Below are positions 4,059 through 59,718 of a stretch of 64,000 bases of DNA, in pieces. The position numbers were made by a program, and so were the translations under genes. This DNA comes from a virus (Duplodnaviria > Heunggongvirae > Uroviricota > Caudoviricetes), in IMG/VR virus record IMGVR_UViG_2585427757_000006. The stretch is one strand, 5' to 3'. Within the stretch, counting starts at the first letter, position 1. Every line of letters starts with the position of its first letter. The notes under the pieces were generated by a model. That model worked only from the letters and a program-made list of their open reading frames with translations. It had not been told where the DNA came from and made no database searches.

Positions 4059-6092
4059 TTACTTAACCTGGTGGCCAGGTTTAGCACCAGCATCCGGGCT
4101 TAACAGGAAGATATCTTTCCCCCCGGGGCCAGCAGCCATTACCATGCCTTCGGAGATACCAAAGCGCATTTTACGCGGTGCCAGGTTGGCCACCATAATG
4201 GTGTGACGCCCGATCAGTGCCTGCGGATCTGGGTAGGCAGAACGAATACCGGAGAAGACATTGCGTTTTTCACCACCGAGATCCAGCGTCAGGCGAAGCA
4301 GTTTGTCAGAACCTTCTACAAACTCTGCGTTTTCAATCAGCGCCACGCGCAGGTCAACTTTGGCGAAGTCGTCAAAGGTGATAGTTTCCTGAATCGGGTC
4401 GTCAGCCAGTGGGCCAGTTACCGGTGCGGCTGTGGCTTTCACTTCTTCTTTGGATGCTTCCACCAGTGCTTCAACCTGCTTCATATCGATGCGGTTATAC
4501 AGTGCCTTGAACGGATTCACTTTATGGCCCAGCAGCGGTTGCTGGATACCATCCCAGGTCAGTTCTGTATTCAGGAATGCTTCTGCACGTTCAGTCAGTT
4601 TCGGCAGTACCGGTTTCAGGTACGTCATCAGCACGCGGAACAGGTTAATGCCCATAGAGCAAATCGCCTGCAGATCGGCATCGCGTCCTTCCTGCTTTGC
4701 CACCACCCACGGAGCCTGTTCATCAACATAGCGGTTAGCCAGGTCAGCCAGTGCCATGATTTCACGGATAGCTTTGCCAAATTCGCGGCTTTCCCATGCT
4801 TCGCCAATCACTTCAGCGGCATCAGTAAAGGTTTTGTACAGTTGCGGGTCAGCCAGTTCGCTTGCCAGCACGCCGTCAAAACGCTTGTTGATAAAGCCTG
4901 CATTACGGGAGGCCAGGTTAACCACTTTGTTAACGATATCGGCATTCACACGCTGAACGAAATCTTCCAGGTTGAGATCGATATCATCAATGCGCGAAGA
5001 GAGTTTCGCAGTGTAGTAGTAACGCAGGCTGTCGGCGTCAAAATGATTCAGCCAGGTGCTGGCTTTAATAAAGGTGCCGCGAGACTTGGACATCTTCGCG
5101 CCGTTCACCGTCACATAGCCGTGAACAAACAGGTTGGTCGGCTTGCGGAAGTTGCTGCCTTCCAGCATGGCAGGCCAGAACAGGCTGTGGAAGTAAACGA
5201 TATCTTTGCCGATGAAGTGGTACAGCTCGGCGGTGGAGTCTTTCTTCCAGTATTCGTCGAAGCTGGTAGTGTCGCCGCGTTTGTCGCACAGATTCTTGAA
5301 GGAACCCATGTAGCCAATCGGCGCGTCCAGCCAGACGTAGAAGTATTTGCCCGGTGCGTTCGGAATTTCAAAACCGAAGTAAGGTGCGTCACGGGAGATA
5401 TCCCACTGTTGCAGGCCAGATTCAAACCACTCCTGCATTTTGTTTGCCACCTGCTCCTGCAACGCACCGCTGCGGGTCCATGCCTGCAACATTTCGCTGA
5501 AAGAAGGCAGATCAAAGAAGAAGTGTTCGGAATCACGCATTACCGGTGTAGCGCCAGAAACCACTGATTTCGGCTCGATCAGTTCCGTCGGGCTGTATGT
5601 CGCGCCGCAGACTTCACAGTTATCGCCGTATTGATCCGGCGCTTTACATTTCGGGCATGTGCCTTTTACAAAACGGTCCGGCAGGAACATGCCTTTTTCC
5701 GGGTCGTACAGCTGAGAGATGGTGCGGTTTTTAATAAAACCGTTCTCTTTCAGGCGAGTATAGATAAGCTCGGACAACTGACGGTTCTCTTCGCTGTGCG
5801 TCGAGTGATAGTTGTCATAGCTGATGTTAAAGCCTGCGAAATCAGTCTGATGTTCCTGACTCATTTCGCCAATCATCTGTTCCGGTGTGATACCAAGCTG
5901 CTGTGCTTTCAGCATGATTGGCGTACCGTGGGCATCGTCGGCACAGATGAAATTAACCTCGTGGCCGCGCATTCGCTGGTAACGAACCCAGACATCAGCC
6001 TGGATGTGCTCCAGCATATGGCCGAGGTGGATTGAGCCGTTAGCGTACGGCAGCGCGCACGTCACCAGAATTTTCTTCGCGACTTGGGTCAT
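4059..6092 (-). CDS. metG: methionine--tRNA ligase
   Basis: 677-aa product from [40 protein letters not shown] motif, C-terminal tRNA-binding domain; start trimmed from track ORF to the conserved N-terminus. Confidence 0.95.
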
Positions 6093-6249
6093 AGTAGGCA
6101 TTACTTCTTTGTAGTGAAAAGGGGCTTGATAGTAACAAAATGGCCTTATGTCTGCCATGTGATAACAGCATTTCTCATAAATGATTAAATGTCGTAGCTG
6201 GAGTACACTACAAGGCGACAATTGCGCAAATTAAAATAAAGGAGACGGG

Positions 6250-7350
6250 ATGAGCGAGTCCAAATCGCCGGATGCCCTGAGAGCAATGGTAGCCGGTACG
6301 CTGGCTAATTTTCAGCACCCAACCCTGAAACACAACCTGACTACGCTTAAAGCGTTACACCATGTTGCGTTGATGGATGACACACTGCATGTCGAACTAA
6401 TCATGCCTTTCGTGTGGAATAAGCCTTTTGAAGACCTGAAAGAGCAATGTAGTGGTGATCTGCTCCGTATCACTGGCGCAAAGGCTATTGACTGGAAGCT
6501 GTCGTACAACATTGCCACGCTTAAGCGCGTCAAAAACCAACCAGGCATTAATGGCGTTAAGAACATTATCGCCGTCAGCTCAGGCAAGGGCGGCGTGGGT
6601 AAATCCTCCACGGCGGTAAACCTGGCACTGGCGTTGGCTGCTGAAGGTGCGAAAGTTGGTATTTTGGATGCCGATATCTATGGTCCATCAATTCCAACCA
6701 TGCTGGGCGCGGAAAACCAACGTCCAACCTCACCGGACGGTACTCACATGGCACCTATCATGTCTCATGGCCTGGCAACCAACTCTATTGGTTATCTGGT
6801 CACCGACGACAATGCAATGGTGTGGCGTGGACCGATGGCCAGCAAGGCGCTGATGCAGATGTTGCAGGAAACACTGTGGCCTGATCTGGACTATCTCGTT
6901 CTCGATATGCCACCGGGCACTGGTGATATTCAATTGACGCTGGCGCAGAACATTCCTGTAACTGGTGCGGTTGTGGTAACTACGCCGCAAGACATCGCGC
7001 TGATCGATGCGAAGAAAGGCATTGTGATGTTCGAAAAAGTCGAAGTGCCGGTACTGGGTATCGTTGAAAACATGAGTGTGCATATTTGCAGTAACTGCGG
7101 TCATCACGAGCCAATTTTTGGCACCGGTGGCGCACAGAAACTGGCCGAGAAATACAACACGCAGTTGTTAGGCCAAATGCCACTTCATATCTCTCTTCGT
7201 GAAGATCTGGATAACGGAACACCAACCGTTATTAGTCGTCCAGATAGTGAATTTACGGCTATTTATCGTGACCTCGCAGATCGCGTTGCTGCCCAAATGT
7301 ATTGGCAAGGTGAAGTAATACCTGGCGAAATCGCATTCCGCGCAGTGTGA
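6250..7350 (+). CDS. apbC: Fe-S cluster carrier ATPase ApbC/Mrp
   Basis: P-loop [16 protein letters not shown], CxxC motif CSNCGH, SD ggaga upstream; divergent from metG as in enterobacterial chromosomes. Confidence 0.93.
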
Positions 7351-55154: not shown

Positions 55155-55541
55155 ATGTCTGACAACAAGATTGAATTTATAGAAAGTCGCTATGCTGCTT
55201 TTATCGCAGGGCTGATTGAATCCTCACCTATGAGTCAGGCCCAAATAGCCAGACTTATTGGTTATAAAAATGCCAACAACCTTTCTTTAATTAAAAGTGG
55301 CAAAATTCCTTTGCCTATCGATAAGGTTCGTCCGTTGGCGCTGGCGCTGGGTATTGAGCCAAGTCGTCTTATGATGATGGTGCTGGAAGAACGCCAACCT
55401 GAACTCGCAGCATTTTTATACAAAGAAGGCACCGCTCCTCTTAACGAGGACGAAAAACAGGTTCTTGCTGCATATAACGAGCGATTCGGTAAAGAGAAAG
55501 GCGCATCACAAAAGGTTGTTGAGGCTATAAAGTCTCTATGA
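55155..55541 (+). CDS. helix-turn-helix transcriptional regulator (XRE-like)
   Basis: MSQAQIARLIGYKNANNLSLIKSGK HTH; one of few plus-strand genes, convergent with the recombinase. Confidence 0.6.
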   Translation: MSDNKIEFIESRYAAFIAGLIESSPMSQAQIARLIGYKNANNLSLIKSGKIPLPIDKVRPLALALGIEPSRLMMMVLEERQPELAAFLYKEGTAPLNEDEKQVLAAYNERFGKEKGASQKVVEAIKSL

Positions 55542-56639
55542 AAAATTTACACGAATAAGCTCTGTTGATAGACGATCTCCCTTAAATTTGTGGTCAATTT
55601 CGTCTAAATCCGGTTGCTCTACGATTGATGCGATGTACGTCGAGAAACTTTCTAAGGCGTCTCGCATCTCGTCCATATAATCGTGCCGGTCGTAGACCCG
55701 ATCTATCCCCTCAAGACTGTGGTTCATGATTTTACGTGATACCTCCTGGCTTATGCCTAATGCTGGGAAGTAACTACGCGCAGTACGGCGCAAATCTCGG
55801 GGTGTAAATGGCTCAAGCTCCATCAGTTCTGGTCGTTCCAGAATACGACGTAATGCCTGGGCTATTGCCACTTTAGACATAGGAAGGTCTTTCCCGATTT
55901 TTTTATTCGAAGGCACGAGCCACTGGCTGTCTTTACCATATTCGAACAACTCTTCAATACAAGTGCGCATTAATGAGCTTAAAGGCAGAGAATGCTCACG
56001 GGCAGATTTGTTCCTCTTGCCTTGATTCCAAACCCCACGCTTAAGATTGAACTCACTTTTTTTAGCCCGCAGTACTTCGTCAGGTCGTCTTGCGGATACA
56101 AGACATAGCCTGGCCGCCCATTTTGTACCAGCACACACATTGAAGTAGTCCCATATATTCCAGAACACCCATACCTCTGCGTCGGTCAGCTTCCGCTCGC
56201 GAGGTGTGGGCTTTGCGCCACCGGCAACTTTGTTTAGTGACATATCGTTTAACGGTGACACGTCTATCATCCCCTGGAAGGCGCACCAGCTAAGGAACTG
56301 CTTCATCAGAGAGAAAACGCGGCGGCCCATAACAATTTTGCCATCCAGTATTAGTGGGTTGACCAGTTGGTTCACCATGAACCTATTAATGTCACTTACT
56401 TTTACATCGGCAATGTGCGGCAAAACATGTATCAAAATACAATGAACAGCGATCTCTGGCCGACGTCTGGTTATCAGCAGAGATAAGCGAGTGAATAACA
56501 TGAATGCGTCCGAGAATCTCATGTCATTGCTGACCTGGGAGATCATAACGGCCTGCATTTGAGATGCTCTTTCGAGATACTCTATCGCCTCTTTTGAGGT
56601 GTTCTCCGCAGCGCGTGCTCTGTCAAAGCTATTTTTCAT
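55536..56639 (-). CDS. tyrosine site-specific recombinase
   Basis: C-terminal R...H-x-x-R...Y pattern: LRRTARSYF, HSLEGIDRVYDRHDY. Confidence 0.75.
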   Translation of the reverse strand: MKNSFDRARAAENTSKEAIEYLERASQMQAVMISQVSNDMRFSDAFMLFTRLSLLITRRRPEIAVHCILIHVLPHIADVKVSDINRFMVNQLVNPLILDGKIVMGRRVFSLMKQFLSWCAFQGMIDVSPLNDMSLNKVAGGAKPTPRERKLTDAEVWVFWNIWDYFNVCAGTKWAARLCLVSARRPDEVLRAKKSEFNLKRGVWNQGKRNKSAREHSLPLSSLMRTCIEELFEYGKDSQWLVPSNKKIGKDLPMSKVAIAQALRRILERPELMELEPFTPRDLRRTARSYFPALGISQEVSRKIMNHSLEGIDRVYDRHDYMDEMRDALESFSTYIASIVEQPDLDEIDHKFKGDRLSTELIRVNFS

Positions 56640-56737: not shown

Positions 56738-56770
56738 AATGATTCCATACATAGTAGGTATGGAATCATT
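56738..56770. other. lox/dif-like recombination site candidate: perfect 13-bp inverted repeats around a 7-bp spacer
   Basis: aatgattccatac-atagtag-gtatggaatcatt, 100 bp upstream of the tyrosine recombinase start. Confidence 0.5.
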
Positions 56771-56889
56771 GTGGGCCTTTTTTATAAAATCTGTGATTCT
56801 TCTCAGGATAAATTATCTAAACTAAAAATTGTGTTTTGTGTTGGCATCTGCTTGAATAGACGCATGTTTATTCAGATATGGAATAATCA

Positions 56890-57426
56890 GTGAACAACCA
56901 AATTCATTGGGACTACCCATTCTCAGAAGAATTCGGCAGTGGGATGGTACACAGACAATTCACTGTGGGAAGCACTATTTATGCCGTTGGGTTTGAACAA
57001 ATATTGACGATGGATGATTTCACACGTAAGGGAGTTGATATCCTAAATGTACATCCAACATTCCGGTTTCCTCTGAGTGGTGTATGGGGAGTGATTTTTG
57101 ACGAAATTGACCCTGTAGAAATGGATTTCAAAGGATTTCGGCATATCCAACATCAAGGCTTGGCAGGTGGTCAAGTGCTTTTGAATGTTGCAAGTATAAT
57201 CTTTGACCATTATACTGTTTGTAACGCAGGAGCTTATGTCTTCTCCGCCGCAGACGACCATCAGCATTTACGCAGAACTGACTTGGTTGACATTTACTGT
57301 AAGATACTAGGTCTAAATGGAAAACGTAAAAGTAGATTGTTCGCCAATGGTTTTCCTGGATGGGAGGCATACTGTGATGTACCAACAGGAGGAAGAGGCT
57401 ATGTCGTCACGACTGAAAGTTATTAA
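56890..57426 (+). CDS. hypothetical protein, GTG start
   Basis: 178-aa ORF; no clear SD. Confidence 0.35.
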   Translation: MNNQIHWDYPFSEEFGSGMVHRQFTVGSTIYAVGFEQILTMDDFTRKGVDILNVHPTFRFPLSGVWGVIFDEIDPVEMDFKGFRHIQHQGLAGGQVLLNVASIIFDHYTVCNAGAYVFSAADDHQHLRRTDLVDIYCKILGLNGKRKSRLFANGFPGWEAYCDVPTGGRGYVVTTESY

Positions 57427-57628
57427 TTATTACCCCACCTCTGCAGAACGTTTGAGCCTTGAAATGGGCGAAAGACTACAGAAAGCTGCTGGTCAGGATT
57501 TAAAGAACAAGTTGGGTTCAGGGGAAATTAAACTGATTAACGGTAAATATGTAGGTGAAAGCCTGAAAGTTAATAGCACCTCTATGCTAAAAGCGCGGTT
57601 GCGTAAAGCGTATATCCCCGCTAAATGA
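57401..57628 (+). CDS. hypothetical small protein
   Basis: 75-aa ORF starting MSSRLKV with SD aggagg; overlaps previous ORF in another frame. Confidence 0.4.
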   Translation: MSSRLKVINYYPTSAERLSLEMGERLQKAAGQDLKNKLGSGEIKLINGKYVGESLKVNSTSMLKARLRKAYIPAK

Positions 57629-57630
57629 AA

Positions 57631-57656
57631 AGGCCTATATGGGCCTTTTCATTTTT
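57631..57656. terminator. bidirectional rho-independent terminator between convergent genes
   Basis: aggcc-tatat-ggcct hairpin flanked by A-run and T-run. Confidence 0.6.
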
Positions 57657-57900
57657 ATAGTGTACTCACCAGCGCCGCAAATTCCGTATACCCCCCAATA
57701 TGCTCTCCATGTATGAATATCTGAGGTATGGTATCCACTGGTTTACCAACCAGGTTGCTCAACGTTTCTTTGTTGATCCCCGCAGATGTAATATCTATAT
57801 ACTCATAATCACCGTAGCCATGTCCCTTTAGTTGCTTCGCCAACTCGACCGCACGTTTGCAGTATGAGCAGTTATCTCGTCCGTAGATAGTGATCGTCAT
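57655..57900 (-). CDS. glutaredoxin (NrdH/NrdC-like redoxin)
   Basis: CSYC active site, TIPQIFI, GG motif; 81 aa. Confidence 0.8.
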   Translation of the reverse strand: MTITIYGRDNCSYCKRAVELAKQLKGHGYGDYEYIDITSAGINKETLSNLVGKPVDTIPQIFIHGEHIGGYTEFAALVSTL

Positions 57901-58073
57901 AACTTAACAAATACCTTTATAAATATTGATTCGAACATATCAGACTATACTACAAACAGATTTTTTTGATAAGTATGTAGTAACTTATTGATTGACTAGT
58001 AAACAATTGAAGTGATTACGACAATAGATTACAGTAAGGATTGCCTTGAAATGTACATTTTATAGAGGTTTTA

Positions 58074-58982
58074 ATGATTGGTAAGTTGTCTGATTCTTTG
58101 ATTGAAAATAAATACAACGAATTTAGAGAAGAAATATCTTTACTTTTTGACTATTTAAATCAGATAAATGATACAACAAAGAAAAATATAAAACGTCTTC
58201 TTAAAGAAGTGGAGTATGCACAAAATCCAGATACTATTATTAATATTAATGAAACTATTAAGATTAAGTGTGGCACAACGTTAGCTCGCCATTTATGTTC
58301 AAACCCATATACAGGTTCAACATTAGAGATAGGTAACAGCGCCATTGATTTAGAAGAAAAGATAAGATTGTGTAATACTTTGAAAAATAAACAATATCAG
58401 TGGGTTATTACTGAAGCCTATGAGTTACTGGAAGACTATATTGAGGCAATATATGTCTATACTGTATGTGTTCGAAATGATTTATGGTCCTCAAGTGATT
58501 TTGGTAAGGTTGAAGATGATGAAATTGGGAAAAGGGAAGTTTATTACAGATTATTAAAAGCAAAAAGTAACCCATCGAAAAAAATAACTAAAATTTTCAG
58601 AAATAAAATACCTGGCTTCAAAGAGATAGAAACAAACAACAAGATTGGCAAAAACTATCGCTTTAACATCAAGCTAATTGAACTACTAAGACATACAATA
58701 GTACACAATAGTGGACGATTCAATGATACAGAAAAATTTATAAATAAGGTTTTAGATGAATCTGAAATAAACGGTAAGAAAAGAGTTATTGGAGAAAGAG
58801 CTGTTAGAAGTTACATTACTAAAGTGCAAGAAGATGATATTGTGATGCTCTTAGAAAGACCATCTGAAATTTTAGGTTCTTTTGGTGGGTATTTTAACAG
58901 AGCAAAATTTTTACTAAGTGATATTTTAGAATACTCACTAATCATTAAAGAAGAACTAAAATCATATCTAGGCAATCATTAA
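58074..58982 (+). CDS. AT-rich hypothetical protein with HEPN-like R-x4-H motif; candidate abortive-infection protein
   Basis: 302-aa ORF visibly AT-rich versus its neighbours; LLRHTIVHNSG; strong terminator downstream. Confidence 0.45.
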   Translation: MIGKLSDSLIENKYNEFREEISLLFDYLNQINDTTKKNIKRLLKEVEYAQNPDTIININETIKIKCGTTLARHLCSNPYTGSTLEIGNSAIDLEEKIRLCNTLKNKQYQWVITEAYELLEDYIEAIYVYTVCVRNDLWSSSDFGKVEDDEIGKREVYYRLLKAKSNPSKKITKIFRNKIPGFKEIETNNKIGKNYRFNIKLIELLRHTIVHNSGRFNDTEKFINKVLDESEINGKKRVIGERAVRSYITKVQEDDIVMLLERPSEILGSFGGYFNRAKFLLSDILEYSLIIKEELKSYLGNH

Positions 58983-58987
58983 CAAAA

Positions 58988-59013
58988 AAGGGGCCGAAGC
59001 CCCTTTGGATTTT
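58988..59013. terminator. bidirectional rho-independent terminator
   Basis: aggggc-cgaa-gcccct hairpin flanked by A6 and T-rich runs; sits between the plus-strand gene and the minus-strand tRNA cluster. Confidence 0.7.
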
Positions 59014-59160
59014 GCGCTTAAAAAAGTGTTGCTAGGATGTTAGCAAGCTATGGTTAAGAACGTCTGCCGTAATTGTCTATCACAGCGTTGAGCGGTCTGG
59101 TTTATGTTAGCGGAGTCTTAATCTGGGTGATTAAAAGGCCAAACCGCTCAACGCTGTGTC

Positions 59161-59247
59161 TGGCGGAGAGTAATGGAATCGAACCATCATCGCTTGCGCA
59201 ATGGGACGGTTTTCAAGACCGCTTGAGCACCATGCTCCCTACTCTCC
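59161..59247 (-). tRNA. tRNA-Ser(UGA), type II with long variable arm, CCA encoded
   Basis: Acceptor ggagagt/actctcc, anticodon loop cttgaaa, T-loop ttcgatt; D-loop unusually short. Confidence 0.6.
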
Positions 59248-59471
59248 GGCCGTTGTGGTGGCCGGTACTGAATCTCCGGCATACGGTGCAGCCAATTAGG
59301 ACTACGGACGATCACCGCTCGCGAAAGGGAAGATTTGCGGCCGCATTTCCCTAACATCCAAGAAAGCTATCGCATCAGTCTGCGAATCCACCACAACGGT
59401 AAGATCACTACCTTTCGACCAGTCATTGTGCACATGAACGACGATTAACCGTAATGATCTTATCGTTGTAT

Positions 59472-59547
59472 TGGTGCCGGTTAGCGGACTCGAACCGCTG
59501 ACATCCTGCTTACAAGGCAGGCGCTCTACCAACTGAGCTAAACCGGC
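59472..59547 (-). tRNA. tRNA-Thr(UGU), CCA encoded
   Basis: gccggtttagctcagttggtagagc D-arm, anticodon loop cttgtaa, T-loop ttcgagt. Confidence 0.75.
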
Positions 59548-59551
59548 AATT

Positions 59552-59638
59552 TGGTGGGGAGTGATGGAGTCGAACCACCCGAGTCGCAATGACAGTAGAT
59601 TTACAGTCTACCCCGCTGCCCCTACGGACTAACTCCCC
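59552..59638 (-). tRNA. tRNA-Tyr(GUA), long variable arm, CCA encoded
   Basis: Acceptor ggggagt/actcccc, anticodon stem gtaga/tctac with loop ctgtaaa, T-loop ttcgact. Confidence 0.65.
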
Positions 59639-59643
59639 TAAAT

Positions 59644-59718
59644 TGGCGATGGTGGGTGGATTCGAACCACCGACCAGTTGGTTAACAGCCAACTGCTCTA
59701 CCGCTGAGCTACACCATC
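59644..59718 (-). tRNA. tRNA-Asn(GUU), CCA encoded
   Basis: Acceptor gatggtg/caccatc, D-arm gctcagcggtagagc, anticodon loop ctgttaa, T-loop ttcgaat. Confidence 0.75.

Follow-up and report, generated by a model that had tools for sequence, protein, structure and literature searches.

Stand-alone HEPN proteins of the Abi type are well known, among them AbiD/F, AbiJ, AbiU2, AbiV, HEC-08 and Ishtar. HEPN toxins also occur in MNT-HEPN toxin-antitoxin modules, in the form of HepT/DUF86 proteins such as Shewanella SO_3166 (PDB 5yep) and HI0074 (PDB 1jog). The core of a HEPN domain is made of four helices in an up-down arrangement, helices 2 and 3 being separated by an insert. [quoted passage not shown] 2013, PMC3710099). 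The same work classes Abi_2 as HEPN and describes RnlA/LsoA and PrrC/RloC as latent HEPN endoribonucleases directed against phage T4, which become active upon infection and then cleave mRNA or tRNA (PMC3710099). In HEC-08, mutation of the motif His abolishes defence (bioRxiv 10.1101/2024.01.29.577857).

Here we compare with these systems a 302-aa protein encoded at positions 58074-58982 of a 64-kb stretch of DNA, which is referred to below as the window. The protein is like Abi_2 (AbiD, AbiD1, AbiF) in that it is the ~300-aa product of a single, AT-rich, plasmid-borne gene and has an Rx4H motif, and it would be like Abi_2 in mode of action only if the defence reading given below is right. It differs in that the 302-aa protein has no match to the Abi_2 model (PF07751) at E ≤10, and Abi_2 is absent among the families matched by 138 of its relatives. 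The DUF3644/EC042_2821-type proteins, among which are HEC-08 and Ishtar, are likewise stand-alone HEPN proteins found in defence islands, but they differ from the 302-aa protein in domain order and accessory domains, and matches to DUF3644 lie far below the Pfam cut-off. HepT/DUF86 proteins are ~130 aa long, whereas the protein studied here has 302 aa and additionally contains a helix and hairpin at its N-terminus and an alpha/beta part at its C-terminus. In MNT-HEPN (MntA-HepT) modules the nucleotidyltransferase antitoxin is encoded adjacently, whereas the neighbours here are grxA and tRNA-Ser and no conserved partner is present across 47 loci with relatives; DUF86 gives no Pfam match and an hhalign probability of 0.7%. 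RnlA/LsoA and PrrC/RloC serve as the model for the mechanism proposed for the 302-aa protein, although they have partner antitoxins or ABC-ATPase fusions and no sequence or structural match to it was seen.

Our preferred reading, to which we give a probability of roughly 0.55, is that the product would be a HEPN-type metal-independent RNase acting as a single-gene abortive-infection or exclusion module. The family to which it belongs is probably a new one of the HEPN superfamily, separate from Abi_2, made up of such single-gene abortive-infection or exclusion RNases. Since the stand-alone, Abi-like HEPN kind is already familiar, the gain would lie in a new family and its sensor module, and no new principle would be involved.

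An accessory gene of SSU5-like phage-plasmids

The window is an SSU5-like phage-plasmid of E. coli, with pECOH89, 'Escherichia phage CMS-2020a' and phage Cyrano as relatives. SSU5-like phage-plasmids are frequent in clinical E. coli and Klebsiella, and some of them, pECOH89 being one, carry ESBL genes. The coding sequence of the 302-aa protein (58074-58982, + strand, stop codon included) starts with ATG, and a GAGG Shine-Dalgarno sequence can be read 5 nt upstream of it (58065-58068, + strand). The AT-rich intergenic leader (57901-58073, + strand) is shared with the divergent grxA gene (57655-57900, − strand) and is presumably the promoter region; a scan of its + strand found no sigma-70 consensus site. 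On the other side of the gene lies a cluster of tRNA-Ser-UGA, tRNA-Thr-UGU, tRNA-Tyr-GUA and tRNA-Asn-GUU genes (59161-59718, − strand). The original prediction, made from the sequence of the window, had placed the gene between a glutaredoxin gene and a tRNA cluster and next to a recombinase, of which the first part is correct and the second is not, the tyrosine integrase (55536-56639) being 1.4 kb away.

With a GC content of 0.292 and a GC3 of 0.224, compared with GC3 values of 0.36–0.51 in six neighbouring genes, the gene coincides with the lowest-GC 909-bp stretch of the window (minimum of 0.287 at 57901; window mean 0.46, sd 0.037). The codons AAA, AAT and ATT together account for 18.5% of the gene, compared with 6–11% in the neighbours, and the commonest single codon is GAA. 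These GC and codon-usage calculations agree with the earlier description of an AT-rich gene unlike those around it and with the enrichment of the three codons, although to call the gene dominated by them was a slight overstatement. The strong bidirectional terminator that had been noted at the gene end is also present, as a GC-rich 8-bp hairpin with a GGGGCCGAAGCCCC core (58986-59006), which has an A-run (A6) and a T-rich run as flanks and is terminator-like on both strands (terminator scan and sequence). This hairpin is the right edge of the cassette: phage Cyrano lacks the gene, and its homology to the window restarts at 58983, directly after the stop codon.

Copies of the gene with 100% identity were found in plasmids and in one phage record. 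The gene is present in 30 of 5426 complete E. coli genomes, each time on a plasmid of 106–117 kb and never on the chromosome, and these copies fall into two allele classes without intermediates, one with ≥99% identity to the window (19 genomes) and one with ~70% nucleotide identity (11 genomes). A comparison that slides along the sequence in blocks of 100 bp confines the divergence of the second allele from the window to ~57875-58974 (53–77% identity), while the adjoining 100-bp windows are 91–100% identical; the leader diverges together with the gene (64–77% identity). Between the two alleles dS is ~1.0, compared with a difference of ~3% in the surrounding backbone, and the alleles have therefore been swapped by recombination rather than having diverged in place. 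The dN/dS ratio between them is 0.29 overall and 0.19 in the core, with the highest value (0.41) in the N-terminal third (codons 1-92); the gene encodes a real protein under purifying selection, the N-terminus of which evolves faster.

Homologues occupy the same slot in the same orientation in elements of E. coli, Citrobacter and Klebsiella (38–59% identity), the phage-plasmid homologues of Citrobacter and Klebsiella having 43% and 38% identity, respectively. A homologue is present in 58 plasmid records, as against 429 plasmid records with grxA, most of which thus lack it. In pLAU-OXA1 (NZ_CP045278.1), the slot is filled in the same orientation by a different AT-rich gene (GC 0.31; 5402-6664 of the extracted locus, L058), the product of which is a 420-aa membrane protein with an N-terminal hydrophobic segment and with no Pfam or PADLOC match. 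This protein was considered as a relative of the 302-aa family and rejected (hhalign probability 0.3%). In many other plasmids a Gp49-family gene is found at the same junction. These alternative cargoes identify the grxA-to-tRNA junction as a cargo hotspot, which can hold the gene, its other allele or unrelated cargo, as had been supposed from its position. The gene is thus a horizontally exchanged, optional accessory cassette ('moron') of the SSU5-like E. coli phage-plasmid, and its separate acquisition, first proposed from base composition, is seen in a discrete segment that is present, absent or replaced among near-identical backbones.

The gene abuts the tRNA cluster in the E. coli, Klebsiella and Citrobacter elements alike, and PrrC and RloC are HEPN anticodon nucleases (PMC3710099), which together suggest an anticodon nuclease coupled to the adjacent tRNA genes, whereby host tRNAs would be cut and resistant copies supplied by the element. 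We consider such a coupling highly improbable, since the presence or absence of the gene has no bearing on the tRNA set: phage-plasmids that have the gene and those that lack it share the same cluster, tRNA-Tyr included, and any tRNA is found within 6 kb in only 7 of 47 chromosomal homologues, where it has other identities. As a clue to function, the proximity of tRNA genes is not supported, being a trait of the plasmid backbone rather than of the protein family.

An uncatalogued family with a putative HEPN core

PHROG 35492 was founded on exactly this 302-aa sequence (match E 3e-211), and the family has no assigned function. Word-indexed searches retrieved only nine to ten relatives, and when 1.84 billion cluster representatives were searched exhaustively with a profile, 453 proteins were retrieved at E ≤1e-3, of which 142 were at E ≤1e-30; these 453 representatives stand for clusters at 50% identity. 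Most are ~290–300 aa long and match end to end, with no longer multidomain fusions among them, and the shorter entries are probably fragments. The family extends over Proteobacteria, Bacteroidota, Campylobacterota, Spirochaetota and others. No sequence model of Pfam, NCBIfam, PADLOC or the PDB matched the 302-aa protein at threshold, nor did any of Pfam or PADLOC match the family consensus or any of Pfam the 138 relatives individually, and literature searches returned no paper on the family and no experiment on any member. The family is uncatalogued, lying outside Pfam, NCBIfam and PADLOC 2.0 and being listed in PHROGs as unknown.

The original prediction had assigned the protein to the Abi_2/AbiD/AbiF-type abortive-infection proteins on the basis of an RHTIVH (R-x4-H) sequence. 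The sequence is present as described (residues 206-211; 58689-58706), but the assignment does not hold: neither Abi_2 nor any other HEPN model of Pfam is at or near threshold for the protein, its 138 relatives or the consensus, and PADLOC has no model of an Abi-type or other system that matches the protein or the consensus. We exclude that the protein belongs to Abi_2, DUF86 or another named family. In a protein of such composition, 0.21 occurrences of R-x4-H are expected by chance, and the motif alone is not significant. It is meaningful here because it is near-universal in the family, with R-H-x-[IV]-V-H in nearly all of 156 sequences, and because R206 and H211 are invariant in the 138-sequence alignment, as is E117. 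A further ten residues are kept in ≥90% of the 138 sequences (N105, Q107, W110, Y127, W138, E186, N189, H207, V210 and G214). Conservation is focused on residues 93-133 (KNKQYQWLL.EAYE.FED) and 195-215 (LIE.LRH.IVH..G), while residues 1-92 and 216-302 are variable, the former being the least conserved part of the protein.

An AlphaFold2 model calculated with the 138-sequence alignment is of high confidence (mean pLDDT 94, pTM 0.90). It begins with a long helix (2-50) and a beta-hairpin (69-91), after which come another long helix (93-133), four short helices (140-187) and a further helix (195-212). The loop at G214 then leads to two short helices, a small beta unit and a C-terminal helix (276-300). 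Model, conservation and the dN/dS of 0.41 together mark codons 1-92 (58074-58349, + strand), with the first helix and the hairpin, as a candidate sensor or regulatory module. The long helix (codons 93-133, 58350-58472, + strand), which contains the conserved block KNKQYQW..EAYE..ED with the invariant E117 (58422-58424), is the proposed HEPN 'helix 2' with its acidic residue. The four short helices between the two core helices (codons 134-194, 58473-58655, + strand) would form an insert at the position where HEPN domains usually have one, according to the published description (PMC3710099). The next segment (codons 195-215, 58656-58718, + strand) holds the helix that ends in R206-H207-T-I-V-H211, the proposed catalytic Rx4H motif, and the G214 loop.

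Set against the published HEPN features, the family has an Rx4-6H motif of which both the Arg and the His are invariant, a polar residue after the Arg (H207) kept in at least 90% of sequences, and a motif that coincides with the end of a helix in the model, with G214 in the following loop. E117 is an invariant acidic residue on helix 93-133, which we assume to be close in space to R206 and H211, but the E-x3-[KR] form is absent (E117-L-L-E-D). Model and conservation pattern would fit each published HEPN point with the exception of this form. At the profile level, no similarity to an established HEPN family reached threshold in Pfam, NCBIfam, PADLOC or PDB sequences, and the profile search of PDB sequences returned no HEPN protein. 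Below threshold, Pfam DUF3644 matched the 302-aa protein over residues 182-223, which include the motif (E 2.9, 7.9 bits vs a cut-off of 27.6), and among the 138 members DUF3644 matched three and HEPN_Apea two; both are HEPN families. The family consensus had no HEPN match in Pfam, even sub-threshold. The hhalign comparison with DUF86, made against a four-sequence profile of plasmid HepT genes, gave one alignment, which is non-significant and motif-on-motif only, placing E-x-L-R-H-x-I-V-H in register on g-x-R-N-x-L-x-H.

A Foldseek search of the model against the PDB and BFVD gave nothing significant. HEPN entries appear among 60 hits at a frequency that we estimate to be far above their share of the PDB, an estimate that depends on how many HEPN clusters the library contains, and each of these entries was aligned over ≥90% of its length. 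We infer homology from fold and motif only and regard membership of the HEPN superfamily as likely. Alternatively, this could be a helical protein of another fold or function (a regulator, a scaffold or an enzyme of other chemistry), the conserved Arg, His and Glu of which serve that role; we judge this to be unlikely.

The sub-threshold DUF3644 matches also bear on the kind of HEPN protein that might be involved. The recently described Ishtar proteins are single-gene HEPN proteins (DUF4145 or DUF3644) located near defence genes, with which cells lose plasmid RP4 (bioRxiv 10.64898/2026.07.06.735840), and the 302-aa protein might similarly be an inter-element exclusion factor against plasmids rather than phages. 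The idea has its appeal in that the carrier, being a plasmid, is in competition with other plasmids, and weak DUF3644 matches are found in three family members and in the window protein. Those matches, however, do not come near the threshold (the window protein has an E of 2.9), and the HEPN domain of Ishtar is N-terminal and followed by a beta-rich domain, while the putative HEPN core here is central and lies behind the helix and hairpin module. An anti-plasmid function of this type is, in our assessment, still less probable than a non-HEPN fold, though more credible than the anticodon nuclease.

Genomic context and proposed mode of action

Relatives of the protein were examined at 47 chromosomal loci from Gamma-, Beta-, Alpha- and Deltaproteobacteria, Campylobacterota, Bacteroidota, Spirochaetota, Nitrospirota and others. 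An all-against-all BLAST of these loci found no conserved partner or antitoxin gene, the largest neighbour cluster being that of four related Pseudomonas islands, and the protein therefore acts alone or with host factors. A ToxI-type repeat RNA antitoxin was not found either, with no tandem repeats and with short repeats at chance level only, and Rfam returned the four tRNAs only. With neither an antitoxin gene nor a repeat RNA, control of the protein would be intrinsic or would come from the host.

The GC content of the gene is below that of its flanks at all 47 loci (mean difference −0.115). Within two genes of it, the Pfam families found include resolvase (5), phage integrase (4), FRG (3), AAA_21 (3), nSTAND NTPase (2), Bro-N (2), ToxN and Eco57I. 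The PADLOC matches in the same interval are to mad3 (3), PDC-S15 (3), AriA (3), HEC-01A (2) and PtuA (2), and also to type IIG and type I restriction-modification, PDC-S13, Avs4 and AbiEi; these are raw counts, set against no background rate, and any enrichment in defence-gene neighbours is descriptive only. The IMG/VR collection contains 19 viral contigs with the gene, of which 11 carry distant homologues (24–35% identity) and apparently do not belong to SSU5-like elements, as their gene neighbourhoods differ and comprise tail, tape-measure, lysis, integrase, anti-repressor and methyltransferase genes. The family thus recurs beside known defence genes and in mobile elements, unrelated prophages included, as is expected of a defence gene, and PADLOC-DB 2.0.0 has no catalogued defence-system model that matches the protein or the consensus. 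In descriptive terms, this context is characteristic of a mobile module for defence or conflict that consists of one gene, and it makes a defence or toxin role plausible. As a separate observation, one distant homologue (P0008, metagenome contigs L006-L009) is repeatedly located at the ends of contigs, where it converges with a gene for 562 aa to which Pfam assigns no family.

The same data bear on the possibility that a HEPN-type RNase serves the biology of the phage-plasmid itself, in lytic shut-off of host RNA, in RNA processing or as a self-contained addiction toxin by which the plasmid is stabilised. The gene is carried by a phage-plasmid, between replication/recombination genes and the tRNA genes of the element, and its slot and orientation are kept at 38–59% identity across E. 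coli, Citrobacter and Klebsiella elements; an addiction toxin, moreover, could dispense with an antitoxin-like partner if the protein inhibits itself. The gene is, however, optional on these elements, as the plasmid counts given above indicate, and most members of the family are chromosomal, in islands that hold defence and recombinase genes and have no phage around them, while neither a conserved antitoxin gene nor a repeat RNA accompanies it. We therefore consider a role in the element's own biology improbable, although it is the best placed of the alternatives to an abortive-infection or exclusion module.

For the preferred abortive-infection or exclusion RNase, we propose a mechanism modelled on the latent HEPN endoribonucleases. 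The core would be formed by helix 93-133, which would supply Glu117, and helix 195-212, ending in Arg206-His207-x-x-x-His211. By analogy with HEPN enzymes (PMC3710099), two protomers may join their Rx4H motifs in one active site, in which, from the HEPN properties described there, His211 would be the general base and Arg206 would stabilise the transition state of a metal-independent endoribonuclease. Outside this core, the variable first 92 residues, with their helix and beta-hairpin, and the alpha/beta part at the C-terminus may keep the enzyme off and sense the trigger, with sensing most plausibly attributed to the fast-evolving N-terminal helix and hairpin. An infection-linked signal would then release cleavage of cellular and/or invader RNA and growth would stop, the outcome being that the lysogen population and the phage-plasmid are shielded from competing phages or other mobile elements. 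Separately, loss of the Klebsiella plasmid p2 (CP085480), which was considered as a possible carrier of a homologue, raises phage burst and plasmid uptake (PMC8969562).

In its widest form, the proposal is that the 302-aa protein is the first to be recognised from a large family of single-gene immune proteins, so far uncatalogued, in which a HEPN core is combined with a new N-terminal sensor, and that phage-plasmids swap its alleles at the hotspot and so exclude rivals; we advance this tentatively, at somewhat less than even odds. If confirmed, a compact and widespread single-protein RNase system would be added to the catalogue of bacterial and phage-borne immunity, in which the models of PADLOC 2.0, Pfam and NCBIfam currently miss the family, and the grxA-to-tRNA junction of SSU5-like phage-plasmids would be marked as an exchange hotspot for such cargo.

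Other variable and structured stretches near the cassette

Further stretches close to the gene were recorded in the window. Between the integrase gene and grxA, a segment of ~0.9 kb (56770-57674) is absent from pECOH89 and from the allele-2 plasmid pZ1323HEC0016-2. It contains two ORFs without Pfam or PADLOC match (56890-57426, 178 aa; 57317-57628, 103 aa) and has a hairpin at its end (57623-57654). Elsewhere, the same junction holds other unknown ORFs (Cyrano and pHCM2) or, in Klebsiella elements, a YafO toxin-antitoxin pair and a colicin-immunity gene, and it is a second cargo slot.

Within the tRNA cluster, the 224-bp spacer between tRNA-Ser and tRNA-Thr (59248-59471) has only 25–50% identity to pECOH89 and to the allele-2 plasmid, while the flanking tRNAs are conserved; neither Rfam nor a tRNA gave a match in this third variable stretch. 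For the tRNA at 59164-59248, the best Rfam match is tRNA-Sec, with 46.6 bits against a gathering score of 47, and ARAGORN identifies tRNA-Ser with anticodon TGA; it is most likely an ordinary class II, long-arm tRNA-Ser(UGA). Directly 3' of this tRNA-Ser, on the − strand, lies a very stable hairpin (59081-59158) with 20-nt arms that are 95% complementary and a 38-nt loop (−43 kcal/mol, z = −6.9 vs shuffles). The 100-bp windows over it are 97–100% identical to pECOH89 and to pZ1323HEC0016-2, and the hairpin could be a terminator, a processing site or a recombination site.
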